Numbered from the stretch's first letter, positions 3,246 through 60,437 are shown. The stretch is DNA of 64,000 nucleotides from Elusimicrobia bacterium GWA2_51_34 (GCA_001799565.1 MGTS01000042.1:157793-221792), one strand, 5' to 3'. Numbers and translations are program-made. Notes: generated from the letters alone by a model not told the origin.

Positions 3246-3271
3246 AATAATCTTAGTACCGCTCAAGTAGA

Positions 3272-3356
3272 CAGAATCCAGGAGTCAGAATTCAGAATAG
3301 TTTAACTTTTTCCGCCACGGACATCCCGATTCTGGCTCCTGAATTCTGACTACCTG
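3272..3356. repeat. Heptamer-arm hairpin, CAGAATY/CAGGAGY dialect
   Basis: Left arm cagaatccaggagtcagaattcagaata and right arm gattctggctcctgaattctgactacctg. Lies between rbfA and infB. Confidence 0.7.
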
Positions 3357-9291: not shown

Positions 9292-9397
9292 AAGGTCACA
9301 TGCCACAAGTCAGCTTAGTCTCAAGTTTCAAGTTACAAGTTCAAGCGAACTCACATTCTGGACTTGTGACCTGTGACCTGTGACTTGTGACTTGTAA
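9292..9397. repeat. Heptamer-arm hairpin, GTCACAR dialect, AACTCACATTCT loop
   Basis: Left arm is made of ..cacaagt/caagttt units and the right arm is gacttgtgacctgtgacctgtgacttgtgacttgtaa. The loop motif is shared with 26564.. and 29688... Confidence 0.8.
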
Positions 9398-10948: not shown

Positions 10949-11061
10949 CAGTCTCAAGTCACAGGTCACAAGTCACAAGTGAAAACAAGACAATCACAAG
11001 TCCCCAGTAAACTGCAGAACTGCTATTTACTTGTGACCTGTGACTGGTGTCCTGTAACCTG
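10949..11061. repeat. Heptamer-arm hairpin, GTCACAR dialect
   Basis: Left arm ctcaagtcacaggtcacaagtcacaagt... and right arm acttgtgacctgtgactggtgtcctgtaacctg. Confidence 0.75.
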
Positions 11062-11894: not shown

Positions 11895-12049
11895 AGTCAC
11901 AGGTCACAAGTCACCAGTCACAAGTAATAAATAGGGAAAGTCCTGGGGCTCATGTCACAAAACACAGGTACCAAGTCACATGTAACAAGTCATCAGTAAC
12001 GGCAAAGAGCCTCCTTAATACTTGTGACCTGTGACTTGTGACTTGTGAC
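11895..12049. repeat. Heptamer-arm hairpin, GTCACAR dialect (double left arm)
   Basis: Left arm agtcacaggtcacaagtcaccagtcacaagt plus a second degenerate arm. Loop is ggcaaagagcctccttaata. Right arm is cttgtgacctgtgacttgtgacttgtgac. Confidence 0.75.
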
Positions 12050-12835: not shown

Positions 12836-12926
12836 GACTACAAGCTAGTAAGCTGGTAGGCTAGTATGCTGGTATGCTTTTTAAGGAACTCCTTATAAGG
12901 CCTACTAGCCTACCCGCCTACTAGCA
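12836..12926. repeat. Octamer-arm hairpin, CTACCAGC dialect, palindromic AAGGAACTCCTT loop
   Basis: Left arm agctagtaagctggtaggctagtatgctggtatgc, loop tttttaaggaactccttataagg, right arm cctactagcctacccgcctactagc. Shares a 27-nt identical run with 42143... Confidence 0.8.
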
Positions 12927-12936
12927 GACCCATGCC

Positions 12937-15333
12937 TCACTTCTTAGCGGCTGCAACAGCTAACGCCACTTTCTCTTTCGTCACCGGCATTGATTTTATC
13001 CTCACACCAAGGGCGTCTTCTACCGCATTAGCTATAAGGGGGGCGGCCGGTATCATGGTATGCTCGCCCACTCCGCGCGCGCCGTAGGGGCCGTCGGGCT
13101 GGGCCACTTCTATTATTATCGGCACTACCACGTCAGGCATATCCTTGGCGGTGGGAATTTTATAATCCGAAAAATTAGCGTTCAGCAGGCGGCCCGTTTC
13201 GCCAAAGCGCATATCCTCGTACAGGACTGTGGCAAAGCCCTGCAACAGGCCGCCCACTATCTGGCCTTTTACCAGGTCCGGGTTTATAGCCTTGCCGCAG
13301 TCCACGGCAAGCGCCGCCTTTTTTATTTTCATCTTGCCGGTTTCTCTATCCACTTCAAGAATGACTCCGGCCGAACCGGTGGTGTAGTGCACATTGGGGT
13401 GCCCGCCCTGTCCGGTCTCCGGGTCGCCTATAGCGGAGGCGAATTCAGGCATGAACATGCCGGAGCCCATTATGGGGCCGCCCTTAAAGGTGTGGTCTTC
13501 GGCCTGTATACCGTTTATCACAAAGTCCCGCAGACGCAGTTCAAAATCCGGCCTGGTGTGGCAGCGCACCGTTTCGTTTTTCAGGTACAGCGTGGACTTG
13601 TCCAGGCAGTGTACGCGCTGAACCAGATCAAATATTTTTTCCCGCGCTTCCATGGCGGCGCTCTTTACGGCATTGCCGCAGCCCCAGGTCACATGGGAAC
13701 CCACCGTCTGCCACTCGTAAGGGTTACGGTCGGTATCGGGCGTTTCCACCCGTATTTTAGACACAGGCACGGTAAGCACCTCGGACGCTATCTGCGCCAT
13801 TACCGTCATCAGACCCTGGCCTATTTCCATGCCGGAAACAAGAATATTGATGCTGCCGTCCTCGTTAAATTTAAGGAAAGCGCTTGAAGCGGCGTTCGGC
13901 GGCATGGCGGGGGATTTCCAGAAGCATACCAGCGCCTTGCCTATGGCCTTTTTCGGGTCCTTTGATTCTTCCTTCACACCCCACTTTATTTCTTTTTCCA
14001 CTTTTTCTATGGCTTCTTTAATACCGTTAGGATTCATGGGCGCGCCATAGGGCAGGGTGTCGCCTTCCTTTATGGCGTTTTTCTTGCGGAAAGCCACCGG
14101 GTCCATGCCCAGCTTACCGGCTACGCGGGTAATGTGCGATTCCAACCCGAACAGAAACTCGGAATAGCCGAAGCCGCGGTAAGGCCCGCCGGGGGGGAGA
14201 TTGGTGTAAATACACATGGAGTCTATTTTCAGATTGTCCACTTTGTAGGGGCCGGAAGCCGAAAGTCCCGCCGCGTTTACCACATTCGCGCCGTACTCAA
14301 CATAAGCGCCGGCGTCCCAGCACATTTCAAAATCCAGCGCGGTAATGCGGCCGTCTTTTTTCACGCCCATCTTTATTTTGGCGGTTACGCCCTGGCGCTG
14401 ATAGGTGTTGTAAAATTCCTGCGCGCGGTTCCAAAGAACTTTTACGGGCCGGCCCTGCACAGACACAGCCAGCGCCGCTCCTATTATCTCCATGCTGACG
14501 CCCGCTTTACCGCCGAAACCGCCGCCGATATAGGTGCTTATCACGCGCACATCCTTGTGGCTTATCCCCATAGGCTCTAATACCTGCACAAACACATTAC
14601 GCTGGGTGAACGGCGACTGCGAGGAGGTCCACATGGTAAGACGGCCTGATTCGTCATAAAGGCCTATCACGCAATGCGGCTCTATGGCGCAATGCGCGTA
14701 TCTGGGGACATAATACGTATCCTCCATTACCAGATCCGCTTCTTTGAATCCTTTGGCCAGGTCGCCTTTGCGGGTTTTGCGCCAGTGAGCGATATTGGTG
14801 TTCGGCTTGGGGAAAAACCACGGCACATGGCGGTAGTTTTCTAGGTCGGGGTGTATGATGGGCGCATTTTTCTCAAGAGCTTTAACGGGGTCAAATACGG
14901 GGGTAAGTTCTTCGTATTTCACTTCTACGAGTGCCGCGCCGCGCAGCGCAACCTTGGGATCTGTTGCCACTACGGCGGCAACCTGTTCTCCTACAAAGCG
15001 CACTGTGTCGGTGGCGAAGACATAGCGGTCGGTCATATACAGGCCGAACTTGTGCTTAAAATTATCGCCGGTGACAACTTTTACCACCCCGGGAAGTTTT
15101 TCAGCTTTGGAAGTATCTATGGACTTTATGCGCGCATGGGCGAACGGACTTTCCACGATAGCCGCGTAAAGCAGCCCGGGCCCGAATTCCAGATCGTCGG
15201 TATATTTGGCCGCGCCCTTGATCTTCTCCCACCCGTCCACGCGTGGAACGCTGGTCCCCACCACCAACAAATCGTCCTGGGTTTTCACCTTGGTTGTTTT
15301 TTTAGGTTTGCTTATAATTTTCTGAAGATTCAT
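12937..15333 (-). CDS. Xanthine dehydrogenase family molybdopterin-binding large subunit
   Basis: About 800 aa with an aldehyde oxidase/xanthine dehydrogenase a/b-hammerhead and Mo-binding domain pattern (GGGFGGK). The ATG at 15333 has a GAGG RBS. The track start at 15411 is probably an extension. Confidence 0.85.
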   Translation of the reverse strand: MNLQKIISKPKKTTKVKTQDDLLVVGTSVPRVDGWEKIKGAAKYTDDLEFGPGLLYAAIVESPFAHARIKSIDTSKAEKLPGVVKVVTGDNFKHKFGLYMTDRYVFATDTVRFVGEQVAAVVATDPKVALRGAALVEVKYEELTPVFDPVKALEKNAPIIHPDLENYRHVPWFFPKPNTNIAHWRKTRKGDLAKGFKEADLVMEDTYYVPRYAHCAIEPHCVIGLYDESGRLTMWTSSQSPFTQRNVFVQVLEPMGISHKDVRVISTYIGGGFGGKAGVSMEIIGAALAVSVQGRPVKVLWNRAQEFYNTYQRQGVTAKIKMGVKKDGRITALDFEMCWDAGAYVEYGANVVNAAGLSASGPYKVDNLKIDSMCIYTNLPPGGPYRGFGYSEFLFGLESHITRVAGKLGMDPVAFRKKNAIKEGDTLPYGAPMNPNGIKEAIEKVEKEIKWGVKEESKDPKKAIGKALVCFWKSPAMPPNAASSAFLKFNEDGSINILVSGMEIGQGLMTVMAQIASEVLTVPVSKIRVETPDTDRNPYEWQTVGSHVTWGCGNAVKSAAMEAREKIFDLVQRVHCLDKSTLYLKNETVRCHTRPDFELRLRDFVINGIQAEDHTFKGGPIMGSGMFMPEFASAIGDPETGQGGHPNVHYTTGSAGVILEVDRETGKMKIKKAALAVDCGKAINPDLVKGQIVGGLLQGFATVLYEDMRFGETGRLLNANFSDYKIPTAKDMPDVVVPIIIEVAQPDGPYGARGVGEHTMIPAAPLIANAVEDALGVRIKSMPVTKEKVALAVAAAKK

Positions 15334-15420
15334 ATTCACCTCGGTTTCAGAGACGCTGCCTACTTTCTTACTTGTTTCCGCCGGACGGCGGCTATTTTTA
15401 CCTATCCGCATCCTTTAAAT

Positions 15421-15465
15421 TTCACTTGACCATGTCCCCTGCGTCACTTGTGACCTATGACTTTA
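15421..15465. repeat. Single degenerate CACTTGTGAC-type arm
   Basis: Sequence ttcacttgaccatgtcccctgcgtcacttgtgacctatgac, with no obvious partner arm nearby. Confidence 0.4.
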
Positions 15466-15734
15466 AAAAGGCGCCAGACGCCGCTTCGGGTTATATCTTT
15501 TTACTATAGTTGATTGCGCGTCAGACGCAGGCGCGCCGCAGCCTGCTTTAAAGCGGACCGTGTTGACTGAAATGTGGTTCTTGCCCGGAGAAAACAACCA
15601 GGTTGAACGGGAACGAGCCGACGCGGCGACGGGGACAATACGGGACGTTACCGGCGGCACCGGAGCTGACTGGCTTTCATCCGTTTTGGCTCGCCGTAAA
15701 CAAATTCCCATTGATACTCCAAAAAGGCTGCCTT

Positions 15735-15780
15735 TTCACTCTTTCTTACTCTACACTCGCCACTATCCACTAGACACTTA
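15735..15780. repeat. Tandem heptamer tract (..CAC T.. units), single arm
   Basis: Units tcactct ttcttac tctacac tcgccac tatccac tagacac. Overlaps the 2Fe-2S gene stop. Confidence 0.4.
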
Positions 15781-16245
15781 TTTTCCTTTCGCCGCCTCCG
15801 CTATCGCTTCTACTATCGGTTCATAGCCGGTGCAGCGGCAGAGGTTGCCGGCAATGGCTTCTTTAATTTCGTGATTATCGGGCTTTGAGTTCTTCTCAAG
15901 TAATTCGGTGGCGGAAAGAATCACTCCCGGAGCGCAGAAGCCGCACTGAAAGGCGTTCTTTTCATGAAATTTTTTCTGAAGCTTCTGCGTCCACTTGCGG
16001 GTATTGGCGCCTTCAAGCGTAACTATCTCCGCGCCGTCCGCCTCTACGGCAAGTGCCAGGCACGAACGTACGGTTCTGCCGTTCATCAGCACTGTGCAGG
16101 TGCCGCAGTCGCCGCGGTCGCAGCCCACTTTCGGGCTTTTGATCCCCAGCTTATTGCGCAGCACGTCCAGCAGGACATCATTGGGTTCTACTTCAATAGA
16201 AATTTTTTCATTATTTAAGCTAAATTGAATATTGTGTCGTTTCAT
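15778..16245 (-). CDS. (2Fe-2S)-binding small subunit of the XDH-family enzyme
   Basis: 155 aa with plant-type ferredoxin cysteines (CDRGDCGTC) and a second cluster motif (CGFCAPG ... CRCTGY). Confidence 0.9.
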   Translation of the reverse strand: MKRHNIQFSLNNEKISIEVEPNDVLLDVLRNKLGIKSPKVGCDRGDCGTCTVLMNGRTVRSCLALAVEADGAEIVTLEGANTRKWTQKLQKKFHEKNAFQCGFCAPGVILSATELLEKNSKPDNHEIKEAIAGNLCRCTGYEPIVEAIAEAAKGK

Positions 16246-16259
16246 TAATACTTCCTTGA

Positions 16260-16286
16260 TAGTCGAGAGTTTAGAGTCGAGAGTCT
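16260..16286. repeat. 3' arm (mRNA sense) of the stem bracketing four-helix gene 1, GAGAGTC/TAGAGT dialect
   Basis: tagtcgagagtttagagtcgagagtc is complementary over tagagtttagagt and flanks to 16667-16701. Confidence 0.7.
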
Positions 16287-16639
16287 GGGATTTTATTTGA
16301 ATTTGAGAGTCCTGTTATCATTCTCCCTATTCCATCAGCATCAGAATACAAAGTTTTATGTTTGACTTCTTCAATATAATTCAACTCTAGAGAAAGTCGC
16401 AGGAGAGTTGTTGTTTCACAAAGCGATCCATAAGACATAGACAAAAAATGTTTAAATTCTTTTTTAGATTTTCGCCCGGCGCCTTCAGCGATATTAAGCA
16501 CCACTGAAACTGCCGCCCTGCGTATTTGAGATGTGACCCCGAACATCTCATCCGCAGGAAAGCCCTTGGTCACCATATAGATTTCCTTAGTAAAAGATAA
16601 TGCCTTTTGCCAGACCATTAGTTTTTCAAAGCCAAACAT
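16271..16639 (-). CDS. Four-helix-bundle protein (23S rRNA intervening-sequence protein / Avd family)
   Basis: 122 aa with the hallmark pattern LxVWQKA...FPxxExFGxTSQxRRAAxSVxLNIAEGxGR...GSLxE. The last codons (DSRL) lie in the repeat arm. Confidence 0.85.
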   Translation of the reverse strand: MFGFEKLMVWQKALSFTKEIYMVTKGFPADEMFGVTSQIRRAAVSVVLNIAEGAGRKSKKEFKHFLSMSYGSLCETTTLLRLSLELNYIEEVKHKTLYSDADGIGRMITGLSNSNKIPDSRL

Positions 16640-16666
16640 TATAAGTCTCCCGCCTTTCCGCTTTCG

Positions 16667-16701
16667 GACACTCTAAACTCTAGACTCTCCACTCTACACT
16701 A
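16667..16701. repeat. 5' arm (mRNA sense) of the stem bracketing four-helix gene 1
   Basis: gacactctaaactctagactctccactctacacta. Overlaps the stop of the FAD-subunit gene. Confidence 0.7.
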
Positions 16702-17587
16702 TATTGTTTTCTCCATAACACGGACCTTTCCCGGACAGACGGGCCAGCGCTATTTCAAGCGCGCGCTCGAGCATAATTTCGGCCATATGCAGACGGTATT
16801 CCTTGCTGGAGCGGATATCTGCTATGGGACTGATTTCTGAAAGTATCAGTTTTCTGGCTTTTCCCAAAACCGGGGCGGAAAGTTTGTTGCCGTTAAGCAG
16901 CCGTTCGGTTTTTGGGCATCGCGCCGGTTTTGGCCCCAAAGCGCAGGTTGCCACGCGATAAGTGTTGTCCGCAAAAGCCAGAACGGCTATACCGCCCTGG
17001 GCCAGATCTTCGCCTTCATAGCGGCAAAGCTTCATGTAGCAGCCGGCGTGTTTTTTCTCCGGGAGCGGGAGTTCAAGCCCGGTAACTATTTCGTCGGCGG
17101 CAAGCGCGGTTTTTTTAGGGCCCGCGAACCAGTTGTGTATGGAAACGGCGCGTTCGCCCCTTATAGCGCGGACCAGCACCACCGCGTCGTAGACGGCCAG
17201 CACGGGCGCGGAATCCGCCGAGGGCACGGCCGAGCAGATATTACCGGCCACAGTGGCGCGATTGCGCACCCCTGTTGAGGCCACGGTAAGCGAAGCCTCC
17301 CACAGCAGGGGATACCTGGTTTTAACCAGGTCGGATTCTATGAGGTCCGCAAAAGTGACAAGCGCCCCTATTTTCAGTTTGTTGCCGTCAAGCGTCAGGC
17401 CGCGCAGCTCTTCAAGGTTTTTTATGTCAACCACTATTTCGGGTTTGGCGATATTTTCTTTAAGTTGCACAACCAGGTCGGTGCCGCCGGCAAGGGCTTT
17501 GGCTTTCTCACGGTAAAGTGAAAAGACATGAAGAGCTTCGTCCATGTCTTTGGGTTTAATGTACTCAAATTCAGTAGTAATAGGCAT
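16694..17587 (-). CDS. FAD-binding medium subunit of the XDH-family enzyme (CoxM/XdhB-like)
   Basis: 297 aa with a FAD_binding_5-type N-terminal region (AGGTDLVV) and a CO-dehydrogenase flavoprotein C-terminal-like region. Confidence 0.85.
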   Translation of the reverse strand: MPITTEFEYIKPKDMDEALHVFSLYREKAKALAGGTDLVVQLKENIAKPEIVVDIKNLEELRGLTLDGNKLKIGALVTFADLIESDLVKTRYPLLWEASLTVASTGVRNRATVAGNICSAVPSADSAPVLAVYDAVVLVRAIRGERAVSIHNWFAGPKKTALAADEIVTGLELPLPEKKHAGCYMKLCRYEGEDLAQGGIAVLAFADNTYRVATCALGPKPARCPKTERLLNGNKLSAPVLGKARKLILSEISPIADIRSSKEYRLHMAEIMLERALEIALARLSGKGPCYGENNIV

Positions 17588-17608
17588 GTAATTTACCTCC
17601 GGTAAATT

Positions 17609-17641
17609 AAGTCACAAGTCACAGGTCACAAGACACAAGCC
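17609..17641. repeat. 3' arm (mRNA sense) of the stem bracketing four-helix gene 2, GTCACAR dialect
   Basis: aagtcacaagtcacaggtcacaagacacaagcc is complementary (about 21 bp with 1 mismatch) to each unit at 18053-18225. Confidence 0.75.
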
Positions 17642-17672
17642 AGCAGTAATTAGTTACAGGCAGTTCCGACAC

Positions 17673-18023
17673 CTAAAGACTTTTATAGAAACACCACAAC
17701 AAACGGCCTGTCTCACACCTTAACGTCTCAACCTCAGCAAAAACTTTTTCCGGCAAATATCCCACGTCTTTACAAAACTCAAGCAGGTATTCGGTCTCGG
17801 CAAGAGAACCAAGAGCTATGTTTGCAAACTGCTTTAATTCTTTATTCCCTTGCCTACCGGTTCCCTCAACTATATTCACAGGCACAGATAGTGCGGCACG
17901 CCTCAACTGGCTTGTAACCCCATAAACTTCATCTTTTGGAAAAGACGATGTAGCGGCATAAACGGCCTTTGCCAATGCATCCGCTTTCTTCCATACCTCA
18001 AGCTTTTTGTATCCCTTTTCCAC
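17673..18023 (-). CDS. Four-helix-bundle protein (23S rRNA intervening-sequence protein / Avd family), paralog 2
   Basis: 116 aa with GTG start. Same hallmark pattern (LEVWKKA...FPKDEVYGVTSQLRRAALSVPVNIVEGTGR...GSLAE). Confidence 0.85.
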   Translation of the reverse strand: MEKGYKKLEVWKKADALAKAVYAATSSFPKDEVYGVTSQLRRAALSVPVNIVEGTGRQGNKELKQFANIALGSLAETEYLLEFCKDVGYLPEKVFAEVETLRCETGRLLWCFYKSL

Positions 18024-18052
18024 GCTTATCCCTTCTGATTTCTGTCTTGTGA

Positions 18053-18225
18053 CAACATAAATTCTGCTACTTGTGACCTGTGACTTGTGACAACAGAAAT
18101 TCTGCTACTTGTGACCTGTGACTTGTGTCTTGTGACAACAGAAATTCTGCTACTTGTGACCTGTGACTTGTGTCTTGTGACAACAGAAATTCTGCTACTT
18201 GTGACCTGTGACTTGTGTCTTGTGA
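18053..18225. repeat. Tandem array, one 38-nt plus three 45-nt units (caacagaaattctgctacttgtgacctgtgacttgtgtcttgtga)
   Basis: Units start at 18053, 18091, 18136 and 18181. The three full units are identical or nearly identical. Each contains a GTCACAR-dialect arm. Confidence 0.9.
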
Positions 18226-18226
18226 C

Positions 18227-18254
18227 AGCAAAATGAGCGAAAGCTCATTTTGCT
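18227..18254 (-). terminator. 12-bp stem with GAAA-type tetraloop right after the cyclase stop codon
   Basis: agcaaaatgagc-gaaa-gctcattttgct. There is no clean U-run beyond the stem, so it may be a stabiliser or processing hairpin rather than a terminator. Confidence 0.3.
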
Positions 18255-19069
18255 TACGCTGTCCAGGCCACTACCCGGCCCATGGCGGATTCCAACTCAA
18301 TGCCCTTCAGGGGGAAAAAGCCCAGCCAGCAGCGTTTATTGGATAGTTTGTCTATTTCTCCGCCGATATTCTCAGCGTGCACAAGACGCTTGGGGAACAG
18401 TTTCAGGTGCATTACCTGATAGTATTCTTCAAAAGGAAACATCTCATCCCATGCCTTACCGTAATTTACCTTAAGCTTGTGTTCGGCCTCCAGGAACAGC
18501 TTGGGATGCCAGTTGCGTATTATGGTGTTCATGGGATGATCGGCGGAACCGCAGTCCACGCCTATCCATTTAAATTTCATGGCCAGCGCCCACTTATGAA
18601 ATTTAGGGCCGGGGCCGGGGTGTTTGCAGAAATAACGCACCTCGTCGCAGACATTTTTTTCATACCACGCGTATTTGTGATAGCCGGTGTTGATTATTAA
18701 AATGTCTCCCTTACGGATATCGGCGCGCTTCATAAGCATTTCGGGCTCATAGAGATCGTAATCTCCGACATCTTTGGAAATATCAACAACAACCGCGTTT
18801 CCTATCCACTCATTCATGGGAACTTCACCTATGGTGCGGCCGGCGCTGTAGAAATGAATTTCGCCGTCCATGTGCGTGCCCACATGGTTGGAAGTCTTCA
18901 TTATCTGGCCGTTTGCGCCCTGCCCCATATGCGCGCCCGCTATGCGCTTGAAATACTGAAGCTGGAGCGGCATGTAGCTTGGCCAGGGGGGGGTGTGGAT
19001 GCTCAAAGGCTGGGTAAGGTCGTACATTTTCGCATGCTCCATTACTTTGATAAAGTCAGTGGGTTTCAT
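18254..19069 (-). CDS. Cyclase family protein (kynurenine/aryl-formamidase-like)
   Basis: 271 aa with the metal-binding motif HVGTHMDGEIH (HxGTHxDxxxH). Confidence 0.8.
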   Translation of the reverse strand: MKPTDFIKVMEHAKMYDLTQPLSIHTPPWPSYMPLQLQYFKRIAGAHMGQGANGQIMKTSNHVGTHMDGEIHFYSAGRTIGEVPMNEWIGNAVVVDISKDVGDYDLYEPEMLMKRADIRKGDILIINTGYHKYAWYEKNVCDEVRYFCKHPGPGPKFHKWALAMKFKWIGVDCGSADHPMNTIIRNWHPKLFLEAEHKLKVNYGKAWDEMFPFEEYYQVMHLKLFPKRLVHAENIGGEIDKLSNKRCWLGFFPLKGIELESAMGRVVAWTA

Positions 19070-19089
19070 ATTTTTTCCTCCGTAAAAAA

Positions 19090-19250
19090 TGCCATAAGCC
19101 GTAAGTTTCAGATACGGCTATTTGCCATAAGCCATAGGCAGAAAGACTGCCATAAGCTTTACGCCATATGCCATAGGCTTGTAAGGAACTCCTTAAAAGC
19201 TTACGGCCTATGGCGGGTGCGGCGCCCTTATGGCCTACGGCGTAACAAAG
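19090..19250. repeat. Hairpin, CCATARGC dialect, AAGGAACTCCTT loop
   Basis: Left part gccataagccgtaagtttcagatacggctatttgccataagccataggc..., loop gtaaggaactccttaaaagc, right arm ttacggcctatggcgg..cttatggcctacgg. Homologous in reverse orientation to 27403... Confidence 0.8.
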
Positions 19251-19336
19251 CGATAGACGCTTTGTTACTATGAATTTTAACAAATGCGGGAGGGGGGTTC
19301 AATGTAAGAAAAATTCAACTCTGGCTCTCTTTATAT

Positions 19337-19367
19337 TGGATTCCTGCCAAAAACTTGCAGGAATGAC
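19337..19367 (-). repeat. Small palindromic element GTCATTCCYGC-N8-9-GCRGGAATCC
   Basis: Reverse complement reads gtcattcctgcaagtttttggcaggaatcca. A second copy is at 28275-28305. Confidence 0.6.
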
Positions 19368-19460
19368 AATCCTCAGTCACGGACAGCGCCATAGGCCCGC
19401 GACAAGCCAGTGTCACTGGAGGTGCCGTCTCAAAGGCCTATGGCCCTCAAACGGCCAGCG
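19367..19460 (+). repeat. ~95-nt palindromic element, intergenic copy A
   Basis: caatcctcagtcacggacagcgccataggcccgcgacaagccagtgtcactggaggtgccgtctcaaaggcctatggccc... is about 90 percent identical by eye to 40611-40706 inside yidC. Confidence 0.8.
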
Positions 19461-19496
19461 CGAATGATGGGTTTATCGAATATTTACGCGGACGGG

Positions 19497-20300
19497 TTAT
19501 TCGTAAAAATTAAACCGCCAGCCGAGGCCGAGCCCGAAACGCAGGTTTTCCAGTTTTTCAGCCAGCGGCCCCGCAAGCTTTTTGTCGCCATCGGGAAGCC
19601 AGATTTTCTCATATATCAGGTAAAGGGAAGCCGCAAAACCGCGGTTTATCAAAGCGGGCGCGCTCAAACTGATTTGAAGGCCGGGGGAAAAAAGAAGGCC
19701 ATACGAAGCGGCCCGCTCGCTAAAGGCGGAATTATCCGCCAAAACACAGTCAACGGAATAGAACCGGTAAATACCTCCTGCACCCGCAAGCAAAGAAAAG
19801 TTTGCGAATTCACCCTGATAAAGCTCGCGGCCGAAATAAAGCGTAAGCGAGCGCGTTCTTGTTCTAAAACTATTCACCGCGTCCGAAGAATAGGTAACCG
19901 TGCTGTGCTCTATTATAACGGAAGTTATATTTTCTTTAACGTTAACGCCATTAGCGCGTAAAAAAGAGCCTTCATCTTTTATCGCAGGCAGGGCTGAGTC
20001 GCTGTATAAAAGCCGGAATGATCTTTTACTTTTGCCTGAACCCAGTTCAAAAGCCGGCAAACCGCGCAGGCTGTCATGGAAAAATATCAACTGCGCGGTC
20101 CAGTCGCGCTTAAATAATCCCCTGGGGGCGATTACTCCCTGCAAAGTTCCGGGCGCGTTTAAATCCAGAGAGGGGGAAATTCTTTCAGGAACCCGAGCGG
20201 AAGAAGTGGAGAGAGGAACGGCATATTCCGCAAAAACCGGGATTGAAACAAGAAAACACACTATAATTGAAAAAACAAAAACACCTTTGTATAGGAGCAT
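19497..20300 (-). CDS. Hypothetical secreted / outer-membrane-like protein
   Basis: 267 aa with an N-terminal hydrophobic signal-like segment and an aromatic-rich C-terminus (WRFNFYE). No family recognised. Confidence 0.55.
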   Translation of the reverse strand: MLLYKGVFVFSIIVCFLVSIPVFAEYAVPLSTSSARVPERISPSLDLNAPGTLQGVIAPRGLFKRDWTAQLIFFHDSLRGLPAFELGSGKSKRSFRLLYSDSALPAIKDEGSFLRANGVNVKENITSVIIEHSTVTYSSDAVNSFRTRTRSLTLYFGRELYQGEFANFSLLAGAGGIYRFYSVDCVLADNSAFSERAASYGLLFSPGLQISLSAPALINRGFAASLYLIYEKIWLPDGDKKLAGPLAEKLENLRFGLGLGWRFNFYE

Positions 20301-25574: not shown

Positions 25575-25587
25575 CTTTAATGAAGAG

Positions 25588-25718
25588 ATTACAGCGATAA
25601 CATACGGCGATTACAGTGATAGATGAACCAACAATTTGTTAACCTGATATTTCTTATTATCGCTGTCGTCTCTTTACCCATCGCCGTAATCCCTGCGTTC
25701 TTTATCGCTGTAATCATA
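25588..25718. repeat. Hairpin with GATTACAGCG/CGCTGTAATC-type arms
   Basis: Left arm agattacagcgataacatacggcgattacagtgataga. Right arm tattatcgctgtcg...catcgccgtaatcc...ttatcgctgtaatc. Followed by stem gggctgc-ttttca-gcagccc at the cdsA stop. Confidence 0.7.
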
Positions 25719-25737
25719 GGGCTGCTTTTCAGCAGCC

Positions 25738-26563: not shown

Positions 26564-26663
26564 TACAAGTCACAAGTCACAAGCCATATTAATCTCAAGT
26601 TGCAGGTCACAAGTCTGAAGTAAACTCACATTCTGCACTTGTGACGTGTGACTTGTGACTTGC
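26564..26663. repeat. Heptamer-arm hairpin, GTCACAR dialect, AAACTCACATTCT loop
   Basis: tacaagtcacaagtcacaagcc...ctcaagttgcaggtcacaagtctgaagtaaactcacattctgcacttgtgacgtgtgacttgtgacttg. Confidence 0.8.
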
Positions 26664-27371: not shown

Positions 27372-27402
27372 TGTAGATAGGGCACAATGACAAGGCTATT
27401 AT

Positions 27403-27520
27403 TGCCATAGGCCGTATGCCATAGGCTTTATGAAGAATTTCCTTAATACGGCTTAAGAGCATATGGCCTATGGCAATAGCCGTATCTAAAATTTACGGCT
27501 TATGGCTTAAGCTTATGGCT
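27403..27520. repeat. Hairpin, CCATAGGC dialect
   Basis: Left arm ttgccataggccgtatgccataggc, loop tttatgaagaatttccttaatacgg, right part catatggcctatggcaatagccgtatctaaaatttacggcttatggcttaagcttatggc. Confidence 0.8.
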
Positions 27521-27527
27521 TTACTTT

Positions 27528-29687: not shown

Positions 29688-29786
29688 TGCAAGTCACAAG
29701 CCAGCATAATTTCAAGTTTCAGGGTACAAGTTTCAAGCAAACTCATATTCTTCACTTGTGTCCTGTGACTTGTGTCTTGTGACCTG
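29688..29786. repeat. Heptamer-arm hairpin, GTCACAR dialect, AAACTCATATTCT loop
   Basis: ttgcaagtcacaagcc...ttcaagtttcagggtacaagtttcaagcaaactcatattcttcacttgtgtcctgtgacttgtgtcttgtgacc. Confidence 0.8.
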
Positions 29787-31670: not shown

Positions 31671-31719
31671 CTGTGTTGTTCCTCCGTGCTCTCAACGTTT
31701 CTTTTCCCGCCCTCTGAAC

Positions 31720-31795
31720 AAAGTCACAAGTTTACATGTCTCAAGTCACAAGCCAGAAAGTTCCAGTCTCCCCACTTGCAACCTGTAACTTGCGC
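31720..31795. repeat. Heptamer-arm hairpin, degenerate GTCACAR dialect
   Basis: Left arm caaagtcacaagtttacatgtctcaagtcacaagcc and right arm ccacttgcaacctgtaacttgcg. Confidence 0.6.
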
Positions 31796-31860
31796 CGCAC
31801 TGGAGCAGGATTTCACTTGTGCTATGTTATCATATTAAGGGAGCTTGATTCAACGGTTTT

Positions 31861-31889
31861 TTACACGACCGCTCCATATTTTCTATACT
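31861..31889 (+). promoter_or_regulatory. Candidate promoter of nadE
   Basis: TTACAC - 17 nt - TATACT, 28 nt upstream of the nadE ATG. Confidence 0.35.
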
Positions 31890-31917
31890 CTTATTCTAAG
31901 TCAGAACGCACAATATT

Positions 31918-35079: not shown

Positions 35080-35220
35080 CGCCATAAGCCATAGGCGTAA
35101 ATACTGCCATAAGCTATAAGCCATATGCCATAAGCTTCTAAGGTGGCTCCTTAAAAAGCGTATGGCCTAAAGCATACGGCATATGGCGCGGCTGGAACAG
35201 CCGCCTATGGCTTATGGCAA
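35080..35220. repeat. Hairpin, CCATAAGC dialect
   Basis: Left arm cgccataagccataggcgtaaatactgccataagctataagccatatgccataagc, loop ttctaaggtggctccttaaaaagc, right arm gtatggcctaaagcatacggcatatggcg...gcctatggcttatggc. Confidence 0.8.
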
Positions 35221-37390: not shown

Positions 37391-37437
37391 AAAGTTTTTC
37401 CTAAGTGTAATAGCATGAAAACGAAATGATTTATCAG

Positions 37438-37520
37438 TATAGAGTGGAGTGTTTAGAGTGTAGAGAATATAAGGGATTTCCTTAAAAACTCCCGACTCTC
37501 AACTCTAGACTCTCAACTAT
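37438..37520. repeat. Heptamer-arm hairpin, TAGAGTG/GACTCTC dialect
   Basis: Left arm tatagagtggagtgtttagagtgtagag, loop aatataagggatttccttaaaaact, right arm cccgactctcaactctagactctcaacta. Confidence 0.8.
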
Positions 37521-38380
37521 CATTTTATTCCAGGAGCTGATTCATTGTCCTTTACATAAGCTGCGGCGCAGGCGCGCGAGATAACGCGTATCCTTTTTAT
37601 CAGGTCCACCCGCTCCGATACCGAAATAGCGCCGCGCGCGTCAAGCAGGTTGAAATTATGAGAACATTTCATTACCAGATCATAGGCGGGCAGGTAACAG
37701 CTCATTTTTACCAGGCGGAAAACTTCTTTTTCCCAACGCTCAAAGTTGGACCGCAGATTCTCCACATCGGCCGCTTCAAAATTATAATGGGAAAACTGCT
37801 CTTCCTGCTCCTTATGCAGCTCGCCATAGGTAACGTGATTATTCCACTTTATATCAAAGATGCTGTCCTTTTTCTGCGCGAACATGGCCAGGCGCTCAAG
37901 GCCATAGGTTATTTCCACCGTTATGGGATTTAGTTCAAAAGAAGCCATGTGCTGAAAATAAGTGAACTGCGTTATCTCCATTCCGTCAAGCCACACTTCC
38001 CACCCCACACCCGAAGCGCCAAGCGTGGGCGATTCCCAGTCGTCCTCTATCCAGCGTATATCATGCTCGCTGTGATCTATGCCGACCGCTTTTAAGGAAT
38101 TAAGATATACCTGTTGGATATCCGCGCGCGGCGGTTTTATAATTACCTGGTACTGGTAGTACCTGCCAAGGCGGTTCGGGTTTTCACCGTAACGTCCGTC
38201 GGCCGGGCGGCGGCAGGGTTCCACATAGGCCGTACTGACAGGCAGCGCGGTAAGCGAACCAAAAAAAGTGGCCGGGTTATAAGTGCCGGCGCCCTTTTCA
38301 AGATCATAGGGCTGTATTATGGCGCAGCCCTGGCGGGCCCAGTACCGGTCAAATTTTAAAATTATATCCTGCAGATTCAT
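37520..38380 (-). CDS. glyQ: Glycine--tRNA ligase alpha subunit
   Basis: 286 aa. Highly conserved GlyQ N-terminus ([17 protein letters not shown]). Confidence 0.95.
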
Positions 38381-38526: not shown

Positions 38527-38571
38527 TTTACCAGCCTACCAGCTTACCAGCATACAAGCCTACTAGCAAGC
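38527..38571. repeat. Single CTACCAGC-dialect arm
   Basis: tttaccagcctaccagcttaccagcatacaagcctactagcaagc, with no clear partner arm. Confidence 0.55.
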
Positions 38572-39215: not shown

Positions 39216-39327
39216 CAGGTTCACGGTTCAGTGGTTCAAAGGTTCAACGGTTGGGAATCAGGGAACACAAAAAGACCGTGAAAAAAATAACCGTGAACCG
39301 CTGAACCGTGAACCTGGTAACCTGAAC
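39216..39327. repeat. Hairpin, GGTTCAC/GGTTCAG dialect
   Basis: Left arm caggttcacggttcagtggttcaaaggttcaacggttgggaatcagggaac and right arm ccgtgaaccgctgaaccgtgaacctggtaacctgaac. Confidence 0.8.
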
Positions 39328-42134: not shown

Positions 42135-42142
42135 GTTTATAA

Positions 42143-42231
42143 GGCTGGTAAGCTAGTAGGCTAGTATGCTGGTATGCTTTTTAGGAGTTACTAAAAGGCC
42201 TTCTGGCCTACCCGCTTACCAGCATACTAGC
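42143..42231. repeat. Octamer-arm hairpin, CTACCAGC dialect
   Basis: Left arm ggctggtaagctagtaggctagtatgctggtatgc, loop tttttaggagttactaaaagg, right arm ccttctggcctacccgcttaccagcatactagc. Confidence 0.8.
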
Positions 42232-43254: not shown

Positions 43255-43337
43255 ATCAGGTGGCAGGTTACAGGTTACAGGAAGAACTCTGAAAAATTCT
43301 GCCTGCTGCCTGCCGCCTGCCACCTGTGCTTTTTTTA
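43255..43337 (+). terminator. Heptamer-arm hairpin (CAGGTKR dialect) followed by a T-run; terminator after jag
   Basis: Left arm caggtggcaggttacaggttacaggaag and right arm ctgcctgctgcctgccgcctgccacctg (outer 11 bp perfect), then tgcttttttta. Confidence 0.65.
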
Positions 43338-44759: not shown

Positions 44760-44853
44760 AAGCTAGTAGGCGTGTATGCTTGTAGGCCTAATTTAGGAAC
44801 TCCACAGAAAGCATACCAGCATACAAGCTTACCAGCCTACCAGCAAACTTCAC
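44760..44853. repeat. Octamer-arm hairpin, CTACCAGC dialect
   Basis: Left arm gctagtaggcgtgtatgcttgtaggcc, loop taatttaggaactccacagaaa, right arm gcataccagcatacaagcttaccagcctaccagc. Confidence 0.8.
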
Positions 44854-45611: not shown

Positions 45612-45722
45612 TAGCGGGCAGGCTGGTAGGCGAGTAGGCCAGTAGGCTGGTATGCGGGTAAGTTTTTTGTAGAATTCACAATTAGGCCTACAAGCATACA
45701 CGCCTACCAGCCTACTAGCTGG
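45612..45722. repeat. Octamer-arm hairpin, CTACCAGC dialect
   Basis: Left arm gcgggcaggctggtaggcgagtaggccagtaggctggtatgcggg and right arm aattaggcctacaagcatacacgcctaccagcctactagc. Confidence 0.8.
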
Positions 45723-47639: not shown

Positions 47640-48282
47640 AGAAAGACTGGGTCTCTGGGGCTTGAAACTTGACGCGGAGACTTTGGCGAAACTTAAAATA
47701 CTTGCGCGTGAAGTAAAAGAGAAAAACGCGGGACTTAATTTAATTTCAAAAAACGACGAGCCATGTTTTTGGAGCCGCCACCTTGCCGACTCGCTGGCCG
47801 CGGCGCCCCTGCTTCAAAAACTTGTTTTACCAGGCGCGCTGGCTGCAGACGCGGGCTCAGGGCCGGGTTTCCCGGGCCTTCCGCTAGCTGCCGCCCTGCC
47901 GTCGGTCAATTTTGAGCTTTGGGATTCAAACCGCAAAAGGGTGGAGTTCGCCCTGTGGGCCGCCGGCTCAATGAAACTGAAAAACGCCGCGGTATTCTAC
48001 CGCAGAATAGGCCAAAGCGGGGCGTTTGAGAAGGCCCGCTACGATGCCGTGCTTGAACGGGCCATGGGAAAACTTGAAAATATACTGCCCCAATGCTTAA
48101 ATATGCTTAAATCAGGCGGGGTGTTCCTGGCCTGGCAGAGCGGCCTTGAAGACGCCGCCGCCCCGGGCTCGCTAAAAGCTCTTACGAAAGCGGGCGCGAA
48201 GCTTGAAACCAGGTTCACCTACGCACTTCCGGGTGAAACACGCGAGCGGCTTATACTGGTTTTTCGAAAAGGAAAGTTGTGA
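47623..48282 (+). CDS. rsmG: 16S rRNA (guanine527-N7)-methyltransferase RsmG
   Basis: SAM-binding [12 protein letters not shown]. The ATG at 47623 ([10 protein letters not shown]...) overlaps the mnmG end by 17 nt. Confidence 0.85.
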
Positions 48283-48384
48283 GTTTGGAGTTTAGGAGTT
48301 TGGAGTTCAAGAGTTTTTGAGTTTAGAGTCCTCAAACTCCCAACTCCCCAACTCTCAACCCCTGACTCTCAACTCCAAACTATC
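48281..48384. repeat. Heptamer-arm hairpin, GGAGTTT/AAACTCC dialect
   Basis: Left arm gagtttggagtttaggagtttggagttcaagag and right arm ctcaaactcccaactccccaactctcaacccctgactctcaactccaaac. Confidence 0.8.
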
Positions 48385-48408
48385 AATACTCGTTATGGAG
48401 ATAATACA

Positions 48409-48940: not shown

Positions 48941-49058
48941 GTTAGTGGAGAGTGTAGAGTTGAGAGTGTAGAGTGTGAAGAGAACTCTCTTCCAATCTCT
49001 ACACTATCTACTTCAATTATTTCTGCTCTACACTCCAGACTCTACACTCTCCACTATC
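48941..49058. repeat. Heptamer-arm hairpin, TAGAGTG dialect (outer 17 bp perfect)
   Basis: tagtggagagtgtagag ... ctctacactctccacta, with further gagagtgtagagtg / ctctacac units inside. Confidence 0.8.
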
Positions 49059-53608: not shown

Positions 53609-54490
53609 ATGCCCCACCCTAAATATTTTGACGCGCATAACCACATTCAAAACTATTCGGGCCCGTGTGAAGCCGGCGCAGGGCGCGCGGGACTGATACT
53701 CTTAAACGGCACAGCGCCGGATGACTGGCAAAAGGTCCTGGACCTGGCCGCCGCCGACGAGCGGATTTGGCCCTGTTTCGGCCTGCACCCCTGGTTCATA
53801 AATAAAGCCGGACCGCGCTGGCTTGAAGAACTGGAACTGTTTCTTAAGCGCGCGCCCTCCTGCGTGGGCGAGATAGGCCTGGACGGCGCGAAAAATACCG
53901 GCGCCAAGCGGCAGGAGGAAGTTTTCACGTCCCAGCTTAAACTGGCCGCCCGGCTCAGGCGGCCCGTCTGCCTGCATTGCGTAAAAGCCTGGGGAAAGAT
54001 GTTGAAAATAATTAAAGAAGAACTGCCGGGAACTTTCATGCTGCACTCTTACGGCGGCCCGGCCGAAATGATAAAAGAATTTTCCGCGCTGGGCGCTTAT
54101 TTTTCGTTCGGCTCCGCGATAATGGATCCGAAAAGGGGGAAATTACGCGAAGCGCTTTTAACCGTTCCTCCGGATCGCCTGCTTTTTGAAACCGAGCCGT
54201 CCTACTTCGCCAAGGCTTCGAAGGGACGTGGTCCTGCGAAGCTATTGTCGAGCGAAGCAAACCCGTCCTCCTTCGCCAAGGCTTCGGAGGGACGTAGTCC
54301 TGCGAAGCTGTTGTCAAGCGAAGCAGACCCGTCCTCCTTCGCCAAGGCTTCGGAGGGACATGGTCTGCCGGTATTGATTTCCGCAGCGGCGGACGTTATG
54401 GGCAGACCCGCCCAGGAACTTGCGGAACTTTCCTGGGTCAATGGAATTAAATTTTTAGGAGATATAGTAGATGTAAATAGTAAAGAGTAA
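53609..54490 (+). CDS. TatD-family metal-dependent hydrolase carrying an in-frame tandem repeat insertion
   Basis: 293 aa with an N-terminal FDAHNH metal motif and a TatD-like core. Residues around 197-254 are encoded by the 66-nt repeat. Confidence 0.8.
   Translation: MPHPKYFDAHNHIQNYSGPCEAGAGRAGLILLNGTAPDDWQKVLDLAAADERIWPCFGLHPWFINKAGPRWLEELELFLKRAPSCVGEIGLDGAKNTGAKRQEEVFTSQLKLAARLRRPVCLHCVKAWGKMLKIIKEELPGTFMLHSYGGPAEMIKEFSALGAYFSFGSAIMDPKRGKLREALLTVPPDRLLFETEPSYFAKASKGRGPAKLLSSEANPSSFAKASEGRSPAKLLSSEADPSSFAKASEGHGLPVLISAAADVMGRPAQELAELSWVNGIKFLGDIVDVNSKE
54197..54369 (+). repeat. 66-nt palindromic element, 2.6 tandem copies, in-frame in tatD
   Basis: Units start at 54197, 54263 and 54329. 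Units 1 and 2 differ at 6 of 66 positions. They encode PSYFAKASKGRGPAKLLSSEAN / PSSFAKASEGRSPAKLLSSEAD / PSSFAKASEGHG. Confidence 0.9.
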
Positions 54491-54576
54491 AGCGTAAATA
54501 GTCACTTCTACTCACCATTCACTCTTTACTTTTTACCCTTCACTCTTTACACTTTACGCTTTACTCTTTACTTTCT
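54467..54576. repeat. Heptamer-arm hairpin, GTAAAGM/CTTTAC dialect
   Basis: Left arm gtagatgtaaatagtaaagagtaaagcgtaaatagtcac and right arm cactctttactttttacccttcactctttacactttacgctttactctttac. The left arm encodes the TatD C-terminus. Confidence 0.8.
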
Positions 54577-54580
54577 TATT

Positions 54581-55333
54581 ATGACCGAAGACCGACTCGC
54601 GCGCATAAGACTGCTGGTGGGCTCCGGCGGCGTTGAACGCCTGAAGAATTCCTTTGTTGTTGTGGCCGGGCTTGGCGCGGTAGGCAGTTACGCCGTGGAA
54701 GGCCTGGCAAGGGCCGGCGTGGGCCGCCTTCGGCTTGTGGATTTTGACATTATAAAGGAAAGCAACATCAACCGCCAGCTTTACGCTTTGGGCTCTACCA
54801 TCGGAAAACACAAAGCCGACGTAGCCGCCGGCCGGGTGCTGGACATCAACCCTGCCTGCCGCGTGGAACCGCTTAAAATTTTCGCGGCGGACGAAACTTT
54901 TGACACAATACTTGAAGGCGACCCCGACATAGTAATAGACGCCATTGACGCCATGGGCCCGAAGACCGCCTTCATAGCGGAAACGCAAAAGAGGGGGATA
55001 AAACTTATCTCTTCCATGGGCGCGGCCCTGCGCACCGACCCTTCCGCCATACGAGTGGGCCCCTTCGCGCAAGCGCACGGCTGCCCGCTGGCCGCCAGGC
55101 TTAAGTACTGGCTCAGGAAGAAGAACTCGCCCCCGCAGTTCACCTGCGTTTACTCCGTAGAACCGCTGGGCCGTCTTCGCCTTGCGGCACGCCAGGCTGC
55201 GGCTCCTGAAAAAGATTATTACGACCGCGGCCGCCGGCGGGCCGCTTTAGGCAGCCTTCCCACTATTACGGGAATTTTCGGCCTCACTATAGCCAATACC
55301 GCGATACAAACATTGATAGCGAGTAGGGGTTAG
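54581..55333 (+). CDS. tcdA: tRNA threonylcarbamoyladenosine dehydratase (ThiF/E1-like)
   Basis: 250 aa with a Rossmann GLGAVGS motif. TcdA/CsdL-like length and pattern. Confidence 0.8.
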   Translation: MTEDRLARIRLLVGSGGVERLKNSFVVVAGLGAVGSYAVEGLARAGVGRLRLVDFDIIKESNINRQLYALGSTIGKHKADVAAGRVLDINPACRVEPLKIFAADETFDTILEGDPDIVIDAIDAMGPKTAFIAETQKRGIKLISSMGAALRTDPSAIRVGPFAQAHGCPLAARLKYWLRKKNSPPQFTCVYSVEPLGRLRLAARQAAAPEKDYYDRGRRRAALGSLPTITGIFGLTIANTAIQTLIASRG

Positions 55334-55474
55334 CGAATAGCGAATAGCGACGGAGTTTCTTAAATAAAGTTCCCGTTCCTCCCCAGTCGCGGACAACGCC
55401 AGAGGCCCGCGACAGGCCAGAGTCACTATTCGCTAACCCCTATTCGCTATTCGCTTTCCTACTATTCGCTACGC
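55321..55474. repeat. Heptamer-arm hairpin, GCGAATA dialect, with a partial copy of the 95-nt element in its loop
   Basis: Left arm aggggttagcgaatagcgaatagcga, loop contains cagtcgcggacaacgccagaggcccgcgacaggccagagtcact, right arm attcgctaacccctattcgctattcgc. Confidence 0.8.
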
Positions 55475-60314: not shown

Positions 60315-60437
60315 CTCAGGTTGTCGGGTTCCCGGTTCAGCGGTTCACGGTTAAAGATTAAATAATTTAATATTTTTATTTTCACAATCTTCTTATTCCT
60401 TGATTTTCAACCGTTGAACCATTGAACCGTGAACCAA
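60315..60437. repeat. Hairpin, GGTTCAC dialect with an AT-rich loop
   Basis: Left arm ctcaggttgtcgggttcccggttcagcggttcacggtt and right arm caaccgttgaaccattgaaccgtgaacc. Confidence 0.75.

Follow-up and report, generated by a model that had tools for sequence, protein, structure and literature searches.

Intervening sequences (IVSs) of rRNA occur with and without an open reading frame (ORF), and those with one may carry a gene of the four-helix-bundle (4HB) family PF05635/TIGR02436 ('23S rRNA IVS protein'); the GxxExxY family has also been reported from them. Here we describe two 4HB genes that are not in rRNA but in a metabolic operon, on a 64,000-nucleotide stretch of Elusimicrobia bacterium GWA2_51_34 (GCA_001799565.1 MGTS01000042.1:157793-221792; this whole stretch is called the window, and positions are counted from its first letter). 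The closest described element is the 23S rRNA IVS of Coxiella, which is 428–444 nt long and carries the PF05635 gene S23p; a stem of 28 bp is built from terminal inverted repeats, the 5′ region upstream of the ORF contains two to four tandem GACAGAT heptamers, a number that varies among strains, and RNase III cuts at the start of the first repeat (PMC4990558). A reading of the window made from sequence alone had named rRNA IVSs as the precedent, and the choice is apt in view of the shared family, the variable heptamers and the RNase III cut. As in the ORF-bearing IVSs of Leptospira and Coxiella burnetii, the window genes lie in the loop of a stem, in elements of similar size that are enclosed, in both cases, by terminal inverted repeats. 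Unlike those IVSs, the window cassettes are flanked by protein-coding genes and do not lie in helix 25 or 45 of 23S rRNA, and their type of protein bears clear marks of purifying selection, whereas S23p was argued by the authors of that study to be decaying (PMC4990558).

Tandem heptamers are known from intergenic DNA as well. The systems with which we compared the window were the cyanobacterial short tandemly repeated repetitive sequences (STRR), Xanthomonas GGGAATC, the octamer and heptamer pairs of Geobacter metallireducens and Beggiatoaceae TAACTGA. Like the hairpins described below, they are tandem arrays of 7–8-nt units, mostly about four, between co-directional genes, often as inverted pairs, and are transcribed and strain-variable (PMC4692102, PMC2700814, PMC4679880); they have been read as G-quadruplex formers, regulator sites or slippage products. 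Xanthomonas has 70–75 inverted pairs of GGGAATC arrays, mostly of four units and mostly transcribed, and transcripts start or stop within these repeats more often than in controls (PMC4692102). A supplementary table of that paper, on which its authors are silent, shows that XCC0516, a 4HB protein that has been crystallised, starts inside a four-unit GGGAATC array next to bccP (PMC4692102). The paired inverted octamer and heptamer arrays of Geobacter metallireducens were interpreted as sites for unidentified global regulators (PMC2700814); Nostoc heptamer repeats alter the expression of recF/recO, for which an unidentified binding partner was postulated (10.1101/2022.06.06.494920); and 23S_rRNA_IVP genes have been noticed between cas genes (PMC3936711). 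As far as it could be searched, the heptamer-repeat literature does not connect the repeats to the 4HB gene family, and we found no paper stating such a link in general, which is absence of evidence only given that subscription journals were mostly outside the search.

A parallel from mobile DNA is provided by repetitive extragenic palindromes (REPs), their hairpin-forming doublets (REPINs) and the REP-associated tyrosine transposases (RAYTs), in which a gene likewise lies between inverted copies of its own repeat and many gene-less copies occur elsewhere. The work of Nunvar (2010), Bertels and Rainey (2011) and Ton-Hoang (2012) is said to describe several repeat families per genome, each with its own gene. 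The differences are in the cargo, which here is a four-helix bundle (PF05635) or a small PD-(D/E)XK protein (PF13366) and not a Y1 HUH transposase, and in the repeats, which are tandem heptamer arrays where a REP is a single imperfect palindrome with a conserved tetranucleotide.

Both window genes lie between the cyclase, flavin adenine dinucleotide (FAD) and 2Fe-2S (FeS) genes of a xanthine-dehydrogenase-type operon and share its strand. From the upstream end of the region the features are:

18254-19069, minus strand: putative cyclase, arylformamidase-like (PF04199), host gene
18228-18253, minus strand: short GC-rich hairpin right after the cyclase stop codon, outer flank of the 4HB-2 cassette
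18046-18234, minus strand: region upstream of 4HB-2, about four tandem 45-nt units (repeat scan)
17673-18023, minus strand: 4HB-2 gene, 116 aa, PF05635/TIGR02436 (profile match)
17609-17641, minus strand: downstream (3′) arm of 4HB-2, YTGTGAC heptamers on the sense strand (repeat scan)
17590-17608, minus strand: small hairpin over the FAD ribosome-binding site, ATTTACCGGAGGTAAAT, outer flank of the 4HB-2 cassette
16694-17587, minus strand: FAD-binding subunit of a xanthine-dehydrogenase-family molybdoenzyme, host gene
16667-16701, minus strand: upstream (5′) arm of 4HB-1, sense AGTGTAG AGTGGAG AGTCTAG AGTTTAG AGTGT
16271-16639, minus strand: 4HB-1 gene, 122 aa, PF05635/TIGR02436, Avd-like four-helix bundle (profile match)
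16258-16293, minus strand: downstream (3′) arm of 4HB-1, complementary heptamers (repeat scan)
15778-16245, minus strand: 2Fe-2S subunit, host gene
12937-15411, minus strand: molybdopterin-binding large subunit, host gene

The 4HB-1 and 4HB-2 products match PF05635 with E values of 8.6 × 10−39 and 3.8 × 10−35 (132.5 and 120.7 bits; curated cut-off, 33.8) and TIGR02436 with 121.7 and 108.2 bits (cut-off, 24). These matches and the coordinates confirm that two paralogous four-helix-bundle ORFs interrupt a minus-strand operon, as had been proposed. The two proteins are 42% identical, and the window encodes no other member of the family. Exact database matches for both are recorded under Elusimicrobia bacterium GWC2_51_8, from groundwater, and the locus is present on several public contigs.

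Each gene is the cargo of a compact cassette of about 450–650 nt. On the sense strand, its order is four or five G-rich heptamers, 5–65 nt with a ribosome-binding site, the 4HB ORF, 0–50 nt and four or five complementary heptamers. All arms of the window cassettes are arrays with a period of 7. In the 4HB-1 cassette, 16258-16277 pairs with 16670-16689 (20 nt, 90%) and, one repeat out of register, 16268-16293 pairs with 16675-16700 (26 nt, 81%); the 5′ arm overlaps the FAD stop codon (16694-16696) and the 3′ arm overlaps the last 23 nt of the ORF. Upstream of 4HB-2, each 45-nt unit combines a GTCACAR heptamer arm (18070-18091, 18108-18136, 18153-18181 and 18198-18226) with a short palindrome, GCAGAATTTCTGTTG. 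The first of these arms pairs with 17611-17632 without a mismatch (22 nt, 100%), and 17609-17632 pairs with three more copies in the array (24 nt, 96%). The brackets of complementary tandem-heptamer arms that had been reported at this locus are therefore real at both genes, including the four tandem arm copies that pair with 17609-17641 at gene 2, but the description holds less well at gene 1, where the stem is imperfect and the arms run into coding ends.

Three ordinary genes of the window are also bracketed by repeats, each merely by lying between two complete hairpins of one dialect, as we call the heptamer variants. By contrast, each flank of a 4HB gene is one half of a hairpin: the flanks of 4HB-1 form no local hairpin at all, and those of 4HB-2 form only two, neither of heptamers. 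Repeat arms overwrite the 3′ ends of two host genes, the FAD gene (16694-16701) and a CN-hydrolase gene, in which the C terminus (QVTGHKY, followed by the stop codon) is encoded by a GTCACA heptamer array at 12015-12049; a 4HB protein, P0010, has a long repeat-encoded tail. The 45-nt unit (18046-18234) is present in three or four copies, or rearranged, across assemblies of one organism (L001-L006); as these differences may be real or may reflect the collapse of short-read assemblies, we dropped them as evidence of variation. A conserved palindrome at the loop tip (AAGGAGTTCCTT-like) was likewise dropped, as it had two exact cases only.

Packaging in a heptamer hairpin characterises the gene family in many phyla and is not confined to one genome. 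We scanned one genome per species with a small 4HB alignment; there were at least 80 matching loci, and the figures that follow are for the 80 loci among the matches listed, none of which is from the source genome. These come from at least 12 phyla, including Acidobacteriota, Planctomycetota, Verrucomicrobiota, Bacteroidota, Patescibacteria, Omnitrophota, Chloroflexota and Proteobacteria. Arms, defined by an inverted-repeat score of at least 30 between upstream and downstream flanks, were found at 54 of 78 4HB loci (69%) compared with 8 of 166 non-adjacent control genes at the same loci (4.8%; P = 5.5 × 10−24, Mann–Whitney test), and at least 2 of these 8 control genes are themselves cargo genes. 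Shuffled flanks had a mean score of 16 and yielded no array. Outside Bacteroidota and Ignavibacteria, the proportion of 4HB genes with arms rises to 84% (48 of 57). The array period is 7 in 54 of 66 cases, 8 in 9 and 9 in 3, with a median of 4.4 units per array; the 5′ arm mostly ends 5–65 nt before the start codon, and the 3′ arm mostly starts 0–50 nt after the stop codon, at times within the end of the ORF. The gene has the orientation of both neighbours at 49 loci and is opposed to both at 6, with median gaps of 65 and 50 nt. The sequence-only reading had proposed a cassette family from this one window and had let it depend on four-helix genes being enriched genome-wide in flanking inverted arms; across the listed loci an enrichment is present, and its reach across phyla means that the earlier claim was understated.

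The dialect of the arms follows the protein. The clade of 4HB-2 is well conserved (65–85% identity across Elusimicrobia, Omnitrophota and WOR-3) and uses a GTCAC/CACAAG-type core, sometimes as octamers, in Elusimicrobia, Omnitrophota, WOR-3 and Planctomycetota, although its members occupy unrelated sites such as lepA/lepB and fic/epimerase gene in Omnitrophota and feoA/feoB in WOR-3. AGTNNAG-type repeats flank relatives of 4HB-1 from Caldiserica and from another Elusimicrobium, and a further member of this clade (L174) has the close variant TTAGAGC/TTAGAAC. Some heptamer positions are invariant within a dialect and others are free (GTCACAR, AGTNNAG). In one ortholog of 4HB-2 (L166) the dialect is GTCTCAR, the A>T change in the 5′ arm heptamer being matched by T>A in the 3′ arm in all repeats. 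Across 63 protein/arm pairs, protein identity correlates with the k-mer similarity of the arms (P = 0.003, Mantel test; P = 0.015 for cross-phylum pairs only), and dialect similarity to the nearest protein relative in another phylum is 3.4 times the background (P = 3 × 10−6). At three loci with two 4HB paralogs 1–2 kb apart (42–56% identity), each paralog has its own dialect. The pairing of dialect with paralog that had been suggested from two genes is thus borne out and, because dialect tracks protein clade, the gene and its arms remain a single unit.

A metagenome scan with the FAD subunit recovered 79 related loci, in which the fate of the same junctions can be followed. In about 45 relatives, with FAD subunits that are mostly 67–78% identical, the FAD-to-FeS gap measures 9–13 nt, the cyclase-to-FAD gap is typically about 60 nt, and neither contains a 4HB gene; the 4HB cassettes are insertions into an otherwise tight operon, oriented like the host genes. 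Loaded junctions are seen in L166, with an ortholog of 4HB-2 (81% identical) between cyclase and FAD, and in L172, with an ortholog of 4HB-1 (66%) between FAD and FeS; in L172 an empty hairpin at the cyclase–FAD junction shares an identical 30-nt arm with the 4HB cassette of the same locus. L103 has an empty GTCACAR hairpin between cyclase and FAD, with outer flanks that are orthologous to those of the 4HB-2 cassette, including the hairpins at 18228-18253 and 17590-17608. In L087, the FAD subunit of which is 90% identical, both junctions hold empty hairpins, that at FAD–FeS in the 4HB-1 dialect and that at cyclase–FAD in a quite different one. Empty hairpins in other dialects occur at one junction or the other in six further loci (L101, L091, L099, L102, L116 and L143), and two more distant operons (L125 and L152) have 4HB insertions at analogous junctions, in still other dialects. 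As bare, empty-hairpin and loaded states occur at the same junctions, they are interconvertible, and the gene-less derivatives that the sequence-only reading had placed in the cassette family are found in the same dialect as the genes (L103 and L087). A rough neighbour-joining tree of the FAD subunit fits ancestral presence with repeated losses and repeated gains alike. In L152, which has an FAD subunit at 35% identity, the FAD-to-FeS gap is 596 nt (L152:1655-2272) and is bounded by CAGTKAY-type heptamers; a by-eye translation gives a 4HB-like motif, FTDQIRRSSRSIGA, although an ORF and phmmer screen made no 4HB call, and this stretch may represent a cargo gene that has diverged or decayed.

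Gene-less hairpins of the same dialects far outnumber loaded ones. In the window, the GTCACAR double heptamer occurs 36 times (0.02 expected) and the TAGAGT-type motif 24 times (1.0 expected), and the empty hairpins of the two dialects are:

9317-9395, 10950-11061, 11895-12049, 26565-26662 and 29710-29783: GTCACAR dialect
37435-37522, 48281-48386 and 48944-49055: TAGAGTN dialect

About 25 further intergenic hairpins of the window, mostly between co-directional genes, have arms made of 7- or 8-mer tandem arrays, which fall into at least eight dialects. Hairpins or arrays of other dialects are located at:

3264-3356, 12844-12925, 19070-19496, 25575-25737, 27393-27521, 35081-35218, 38529-38567 and 39216-39316: intergenic
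42142-42178, 43264-43326, 44810-44845, 45620-45713, 54473-54572, 55316-55471 and 60327-60436: intergenic

At least six further dialects, including GCCATAAG, the octamers GCTAGTAG/GGCTGGTA, GGTTCAC, ATAGCGA, AAAGAGT and CAGAATY, have no 4HB gene of their own in the window. Among the listed 4HB loci, 15 of 78 have another, empty heptamer hairpin; empty hairpins near 4HB genes often, although not always, have the dialect of the neighbouring cassette. The empty hairpins of the window look like the same thing as the intergenic heptamer repeats of other bacteria.

The cargo genes themselves are functional. Between orthologous cassettes, the proportion of nonsynonymous differences (pN) is 0.13 for 4HB-2 and 0.23 for 4HB-1, that of synonymous differences (pS) is 0.73 and 0.80, and these figures equal those of the flanking enzyme genes, with synonymous sites near saturation; judged from these comparisons, the proteins are under purifying selection. 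The AlphaFold model of 4HB-1 (predicted local distance difference test, pLDDT, 93.4) is an up-and-down bundle of four long helices. Its best structural match is Xanthomonas XCC0516 (PDB 2GSC; template modelling (TM) score, 0.87–0.94; sequence match, E = 4.9 × 10−19), followed by PDB 2RLD (TM, 0.81–0.91) and Avd (4DWL/8UB7; TM, 0.73–0.83). Avd, the accessory protein of diversity-generating retroelements (DGRs), has a homologous fold, and 2GSC and 2RLD, solved members of the family with five chains in each entry, agree with its pentameric barrel. In the DGR ribonucleoprotein, an RNA stem-loop makes contact with every one of the five Avd protomers, and flipped-out bases are inserted between them (10.1101/2023.10.23.563531). 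The PHROG Avd family is matched at E = 2 × 10−11, whereas the Avd models NF033474 (32.6 and 24.7 bits; cut-off, 80) and PF22296 (35.7 and 22 bits; cut-off, 40) are matched below their cut-offs. The genomic setting also differs from that of Avd, as the neighbours of 4HB-1 and 4HB-2 are metabolic (cyclase, FAD, FeS and molybdenum cofactor genes) and include no reverse transcriptase. A repeat scan of 15700-18800 found no long pair of direct repeats besides the 45-nt array; no search was aimed at the template and variable repeats of a DGR.

A second cargo occupies hairpins of the same kind. The two arm-flanked control genes that we identified are a divergent 4HB gene (L022) and a GxxExxY gene of PD-(D/E)XK type (L023), and further GxxExxY genes were found at other loci:

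L023:1186-1599, L027:1878-2291 and L178-L185:1201-1605: GxxExxY genes (TIGR04256, PF13366) in inverted-repeat hairpins between co-directional genes

The gene from Chloroflexota (L027) has inverted arms on both sides, with repeats that are not strictly heptameric. A relative in Prevotella lies between two co-directional sugar-nucleotide genes and has heptamer arms, and its 40-nt arm-bearing tandem unit is present in two to four copies across assemblies. It thus seems that the hairpin is what stays constant in the element, whereas the cargo can vary.

The explanation that we prefer, with confidence that is evenly balanced, takes the 4HB cassettes, as the loci show, to be hairpin elements of the rRNA-IVS kind that reside in operon junctions of mRNA, keep their cargo with their arms and have many gene-less derivatives; how they act is inferred. 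Such a cassette would have neither promoter nor terminator of its own and would be read through from the host promoter; in a scan of 15400-19500, no promoter or terminator signal exceeded chance, and the six terminator-like hits were no more than in shuffled sequence, with none at the arms. In the transcript, the arms may form a stem of about 25–35 bp that, by analogy with rRNA IVSs, would be cut by RNase III, releasing the 4HB mRNA and separating the flanking cistrons. The protein would probably be an Avd-like pentamer with affinity for the repeat stem of its own dialect, both in its own cassette and in empty hairpins, and the periodic features of the heptamers could be read by successive protomers. 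If the gene were lost, an empty hairpin would remain, and if the hairpin were lost, a bare junction.

Folding of the sense RNA closes the long-range stem in the minimum-energy structure of both cassettes (z = −3.2 for 4HB-1 and −4.7 for 4HB-2), but the 4HB-1 stem is missing from the centroid structure and is therefore the weaker of the two. That absence is one of several points that count against the preferred explanation. There are far more empty hairpins than 4HB genes, and their dialects exceed in number the two that bear genes in the window; about 30% of the listed 4HB loci, mostly in Bacteroidota (arms in 6 of 19), are without detectable arms. Two tests for selection acting on the sense RNA were negative, as mismatches in 54 arm pairs show no significant excess of G·U over A·C (47 versus 37; P = 0.33) and sense and antisense folding do not differ across 24 intergenic regions of the window. 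The complementarity of the arms (0.891) is close to the value (0.880) for two arrays of one degenerate heptamer that are independent of each other. As complementarity is no better than that of independent arrays, the conserved object may be the repeat motif and not the base pairs, and a protein that reads repeats would account for one repeat kept in inverted orientation at least as well as a simple stem does.

Two further candidate signals were rejected. Register-specific compensation between arms was not above the expectation for independent arrays of the same heptamer profile. The 5′ arm is G-rich in 44 of 54 cases, and this shows only the handedness of the element; as an inverted repeat reads alike on both strands, it is uninformative about which strand is transcribed. 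Among the intergenic hairpins of the window, the minus-strand sequence tends to fold better than the plus-strand sequence whatever the direction of the flanking genes (sense minus antisense folding energy, mean −5 kcal/mol for minus-strand genes and +3 for plus-strand genes; 24 regions), which looks like a strand-specific mutational bias that makes G·T rather than A·C mismatches.

What chiefly separates the rival explanations is the level on which the repeats would act and whether protein and repeats are functionally tied. One that we consider unlikely places the action in DNA, in the manner of REP/REPIN–RAYT: the inverted arrays would be recognised as a DNA hairpin, a cruciform or the single strand at a fork, the 4HB or GxxExxY cargo would spread or maintain its cognate repeats, empty hairpins would be non-autonomous copies and any RNA processing would be incidental. 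The architecture fits, with a single gene within inverted repeats of its own family and many gene-less intergenic copies, and so do the identical arms at two sites of one genome, the turnover of junction state and dialect among close relatives, the varying copy number of arm-bearing tandem units, the lack of an RNA-strand signal and the nuclease-fold cargo in the same kind of hairpin. Against it, a helical bundle of 120 aa has no known catalytic fold, and there is no transposase among the genes near the 4HB cassettes. Orthologous cassettes remain at the same junctions until synonymous saturation, as stable residents rather than active transposons would, and mobility at the DNA level alone does not predict that genes share the orientation of their hosts in 49 cases and oppose it in 6. 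Purifying selection equal to that on neighbouring enzyme genes speaks for another rival, a domesticated regulator, in which each 4HB paralog would act in trans, with the arrays of its own dialect in operon junctions as its regulon and its gene in its own site for autoregulation; what is controlled could be the stability of the mRNA, the translation of the following cistron or the local structure of the DNA. The paralog-specific dialects, the invariant core and free positions of the heptamers and the four to five units per array, which suit a pentamer, accord with this, and a shared motif alone explains the complementarity of the arms; the sites of unidentified regulators proposed in Geobacter metallireducens (PMC2700814) and the effect of Nostoc repeats on recF/recO, with its postulated partner (10.1101/2022.06.06.494920), are of the same tenor. 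We nevertheless hold it to be improbable, because hairpins come, go and switch dialect between close relatives faster than is expected of regulon sites, the operons that host them are unrelated housekeeping operons without a common theme, and the same gene family also lies inside rRNA.

The explanation that fits worst, which we regard as very unlikely, treats the hairpin as a landing pad, that is, a repeat family born by slippage into the loops of which unrelated ORFs have recombined, without any link between protein and arms. It would accommodate the much greater abundance of empty than of loaded hairpins, the empty hairpin of L103 where the window has a loaded one, and the unrelated GxxExxY cargo in the same kind of hairpin. 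It is at odds with the arms on 84% of listed 4HB genes outside Bacteroidota and Ignavibacteria, with their presence also at loci that have no other heptamer hairpin in the surrounding 5 kb, and with dialects that follow the protein clade across phyla and differ between neighbouring paralogs; furthermore, as the FAD–FeS junction is only 9–13 nt long in about 45 relatives, the arms there came with the gene.

Several other features of the window are recorded for completeness. On the minus strand, the molybdopterin subunit gene is followed by the CN-hydrolase gene and by AllH/AllF/AllG-type genes. A 366-nt gap (15412-15777; about 450 nt in relatives) separates the 2Fe-2S and molybdopterin subunit genes and contains a terminator-like hairpin (15482-15470, minus strand), one TAGAGT-type motif (15748-15758) and one GTCACA-like motif (15449-15461); in L172 this gap carries two small genes, Rv0078B-like and DUF6036. 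Gene orientation switches at 31671-31917, a divergent intergenic region of 247 nt with minus-strand genes to the left and plus-strand genes to the right, which includes a GTCACA-type motif (31738-31750). A 66-nt tandem repeat (54197-54365; 2.6 copies, 92% identity) lies within the ORF 53609-54490 or at its end and has no relation to the heptamer arrays. Rfam yields no match to the window at gathering score, and a PADLOC search returned no match.

The individual pieces of this picture were known separately, and it is the general link of the 4HB family to heptamer hairpins that is new, as far as we could find. The library searched contains at least 18,889 clusters (50% identity) of the TIGR02436/PF05635 family, which has no known function and is named only after a rare location, the rRNA. 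Among the longer simple repeats of many bacterial genomes, heptamers are the most over-represented, and there is no accepted explanation for them. With the link, the repeats gain a candidate binding partner and the protein a candidate ligand. It is possible, although we put this forward tentatively and below even confidence, that 4HB proteins are the readers of bacterial heptamer repeats: by analogy with Avd, each protomer of a pentamer would bind one repeat in an array of about five heptamers of the pentamer's own dialect, each paralog and its arrays would form a self-propagating or regulatory network, and rRNA IVSs, STRR, the GGGAATC pairs and the Geobacter sites would belong to one hairpin-cassette system with a second, nuclease-fold cargo (GxxExxY). 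For annotation, cassettes and their empty derivatives become recognisable, and some apparent links of 4HB genes to CRISPR loci may only reflect insertion between the genes of an operon. The IVSs of rRNA are then a special case of a widespread element that dwells mostly in operons.

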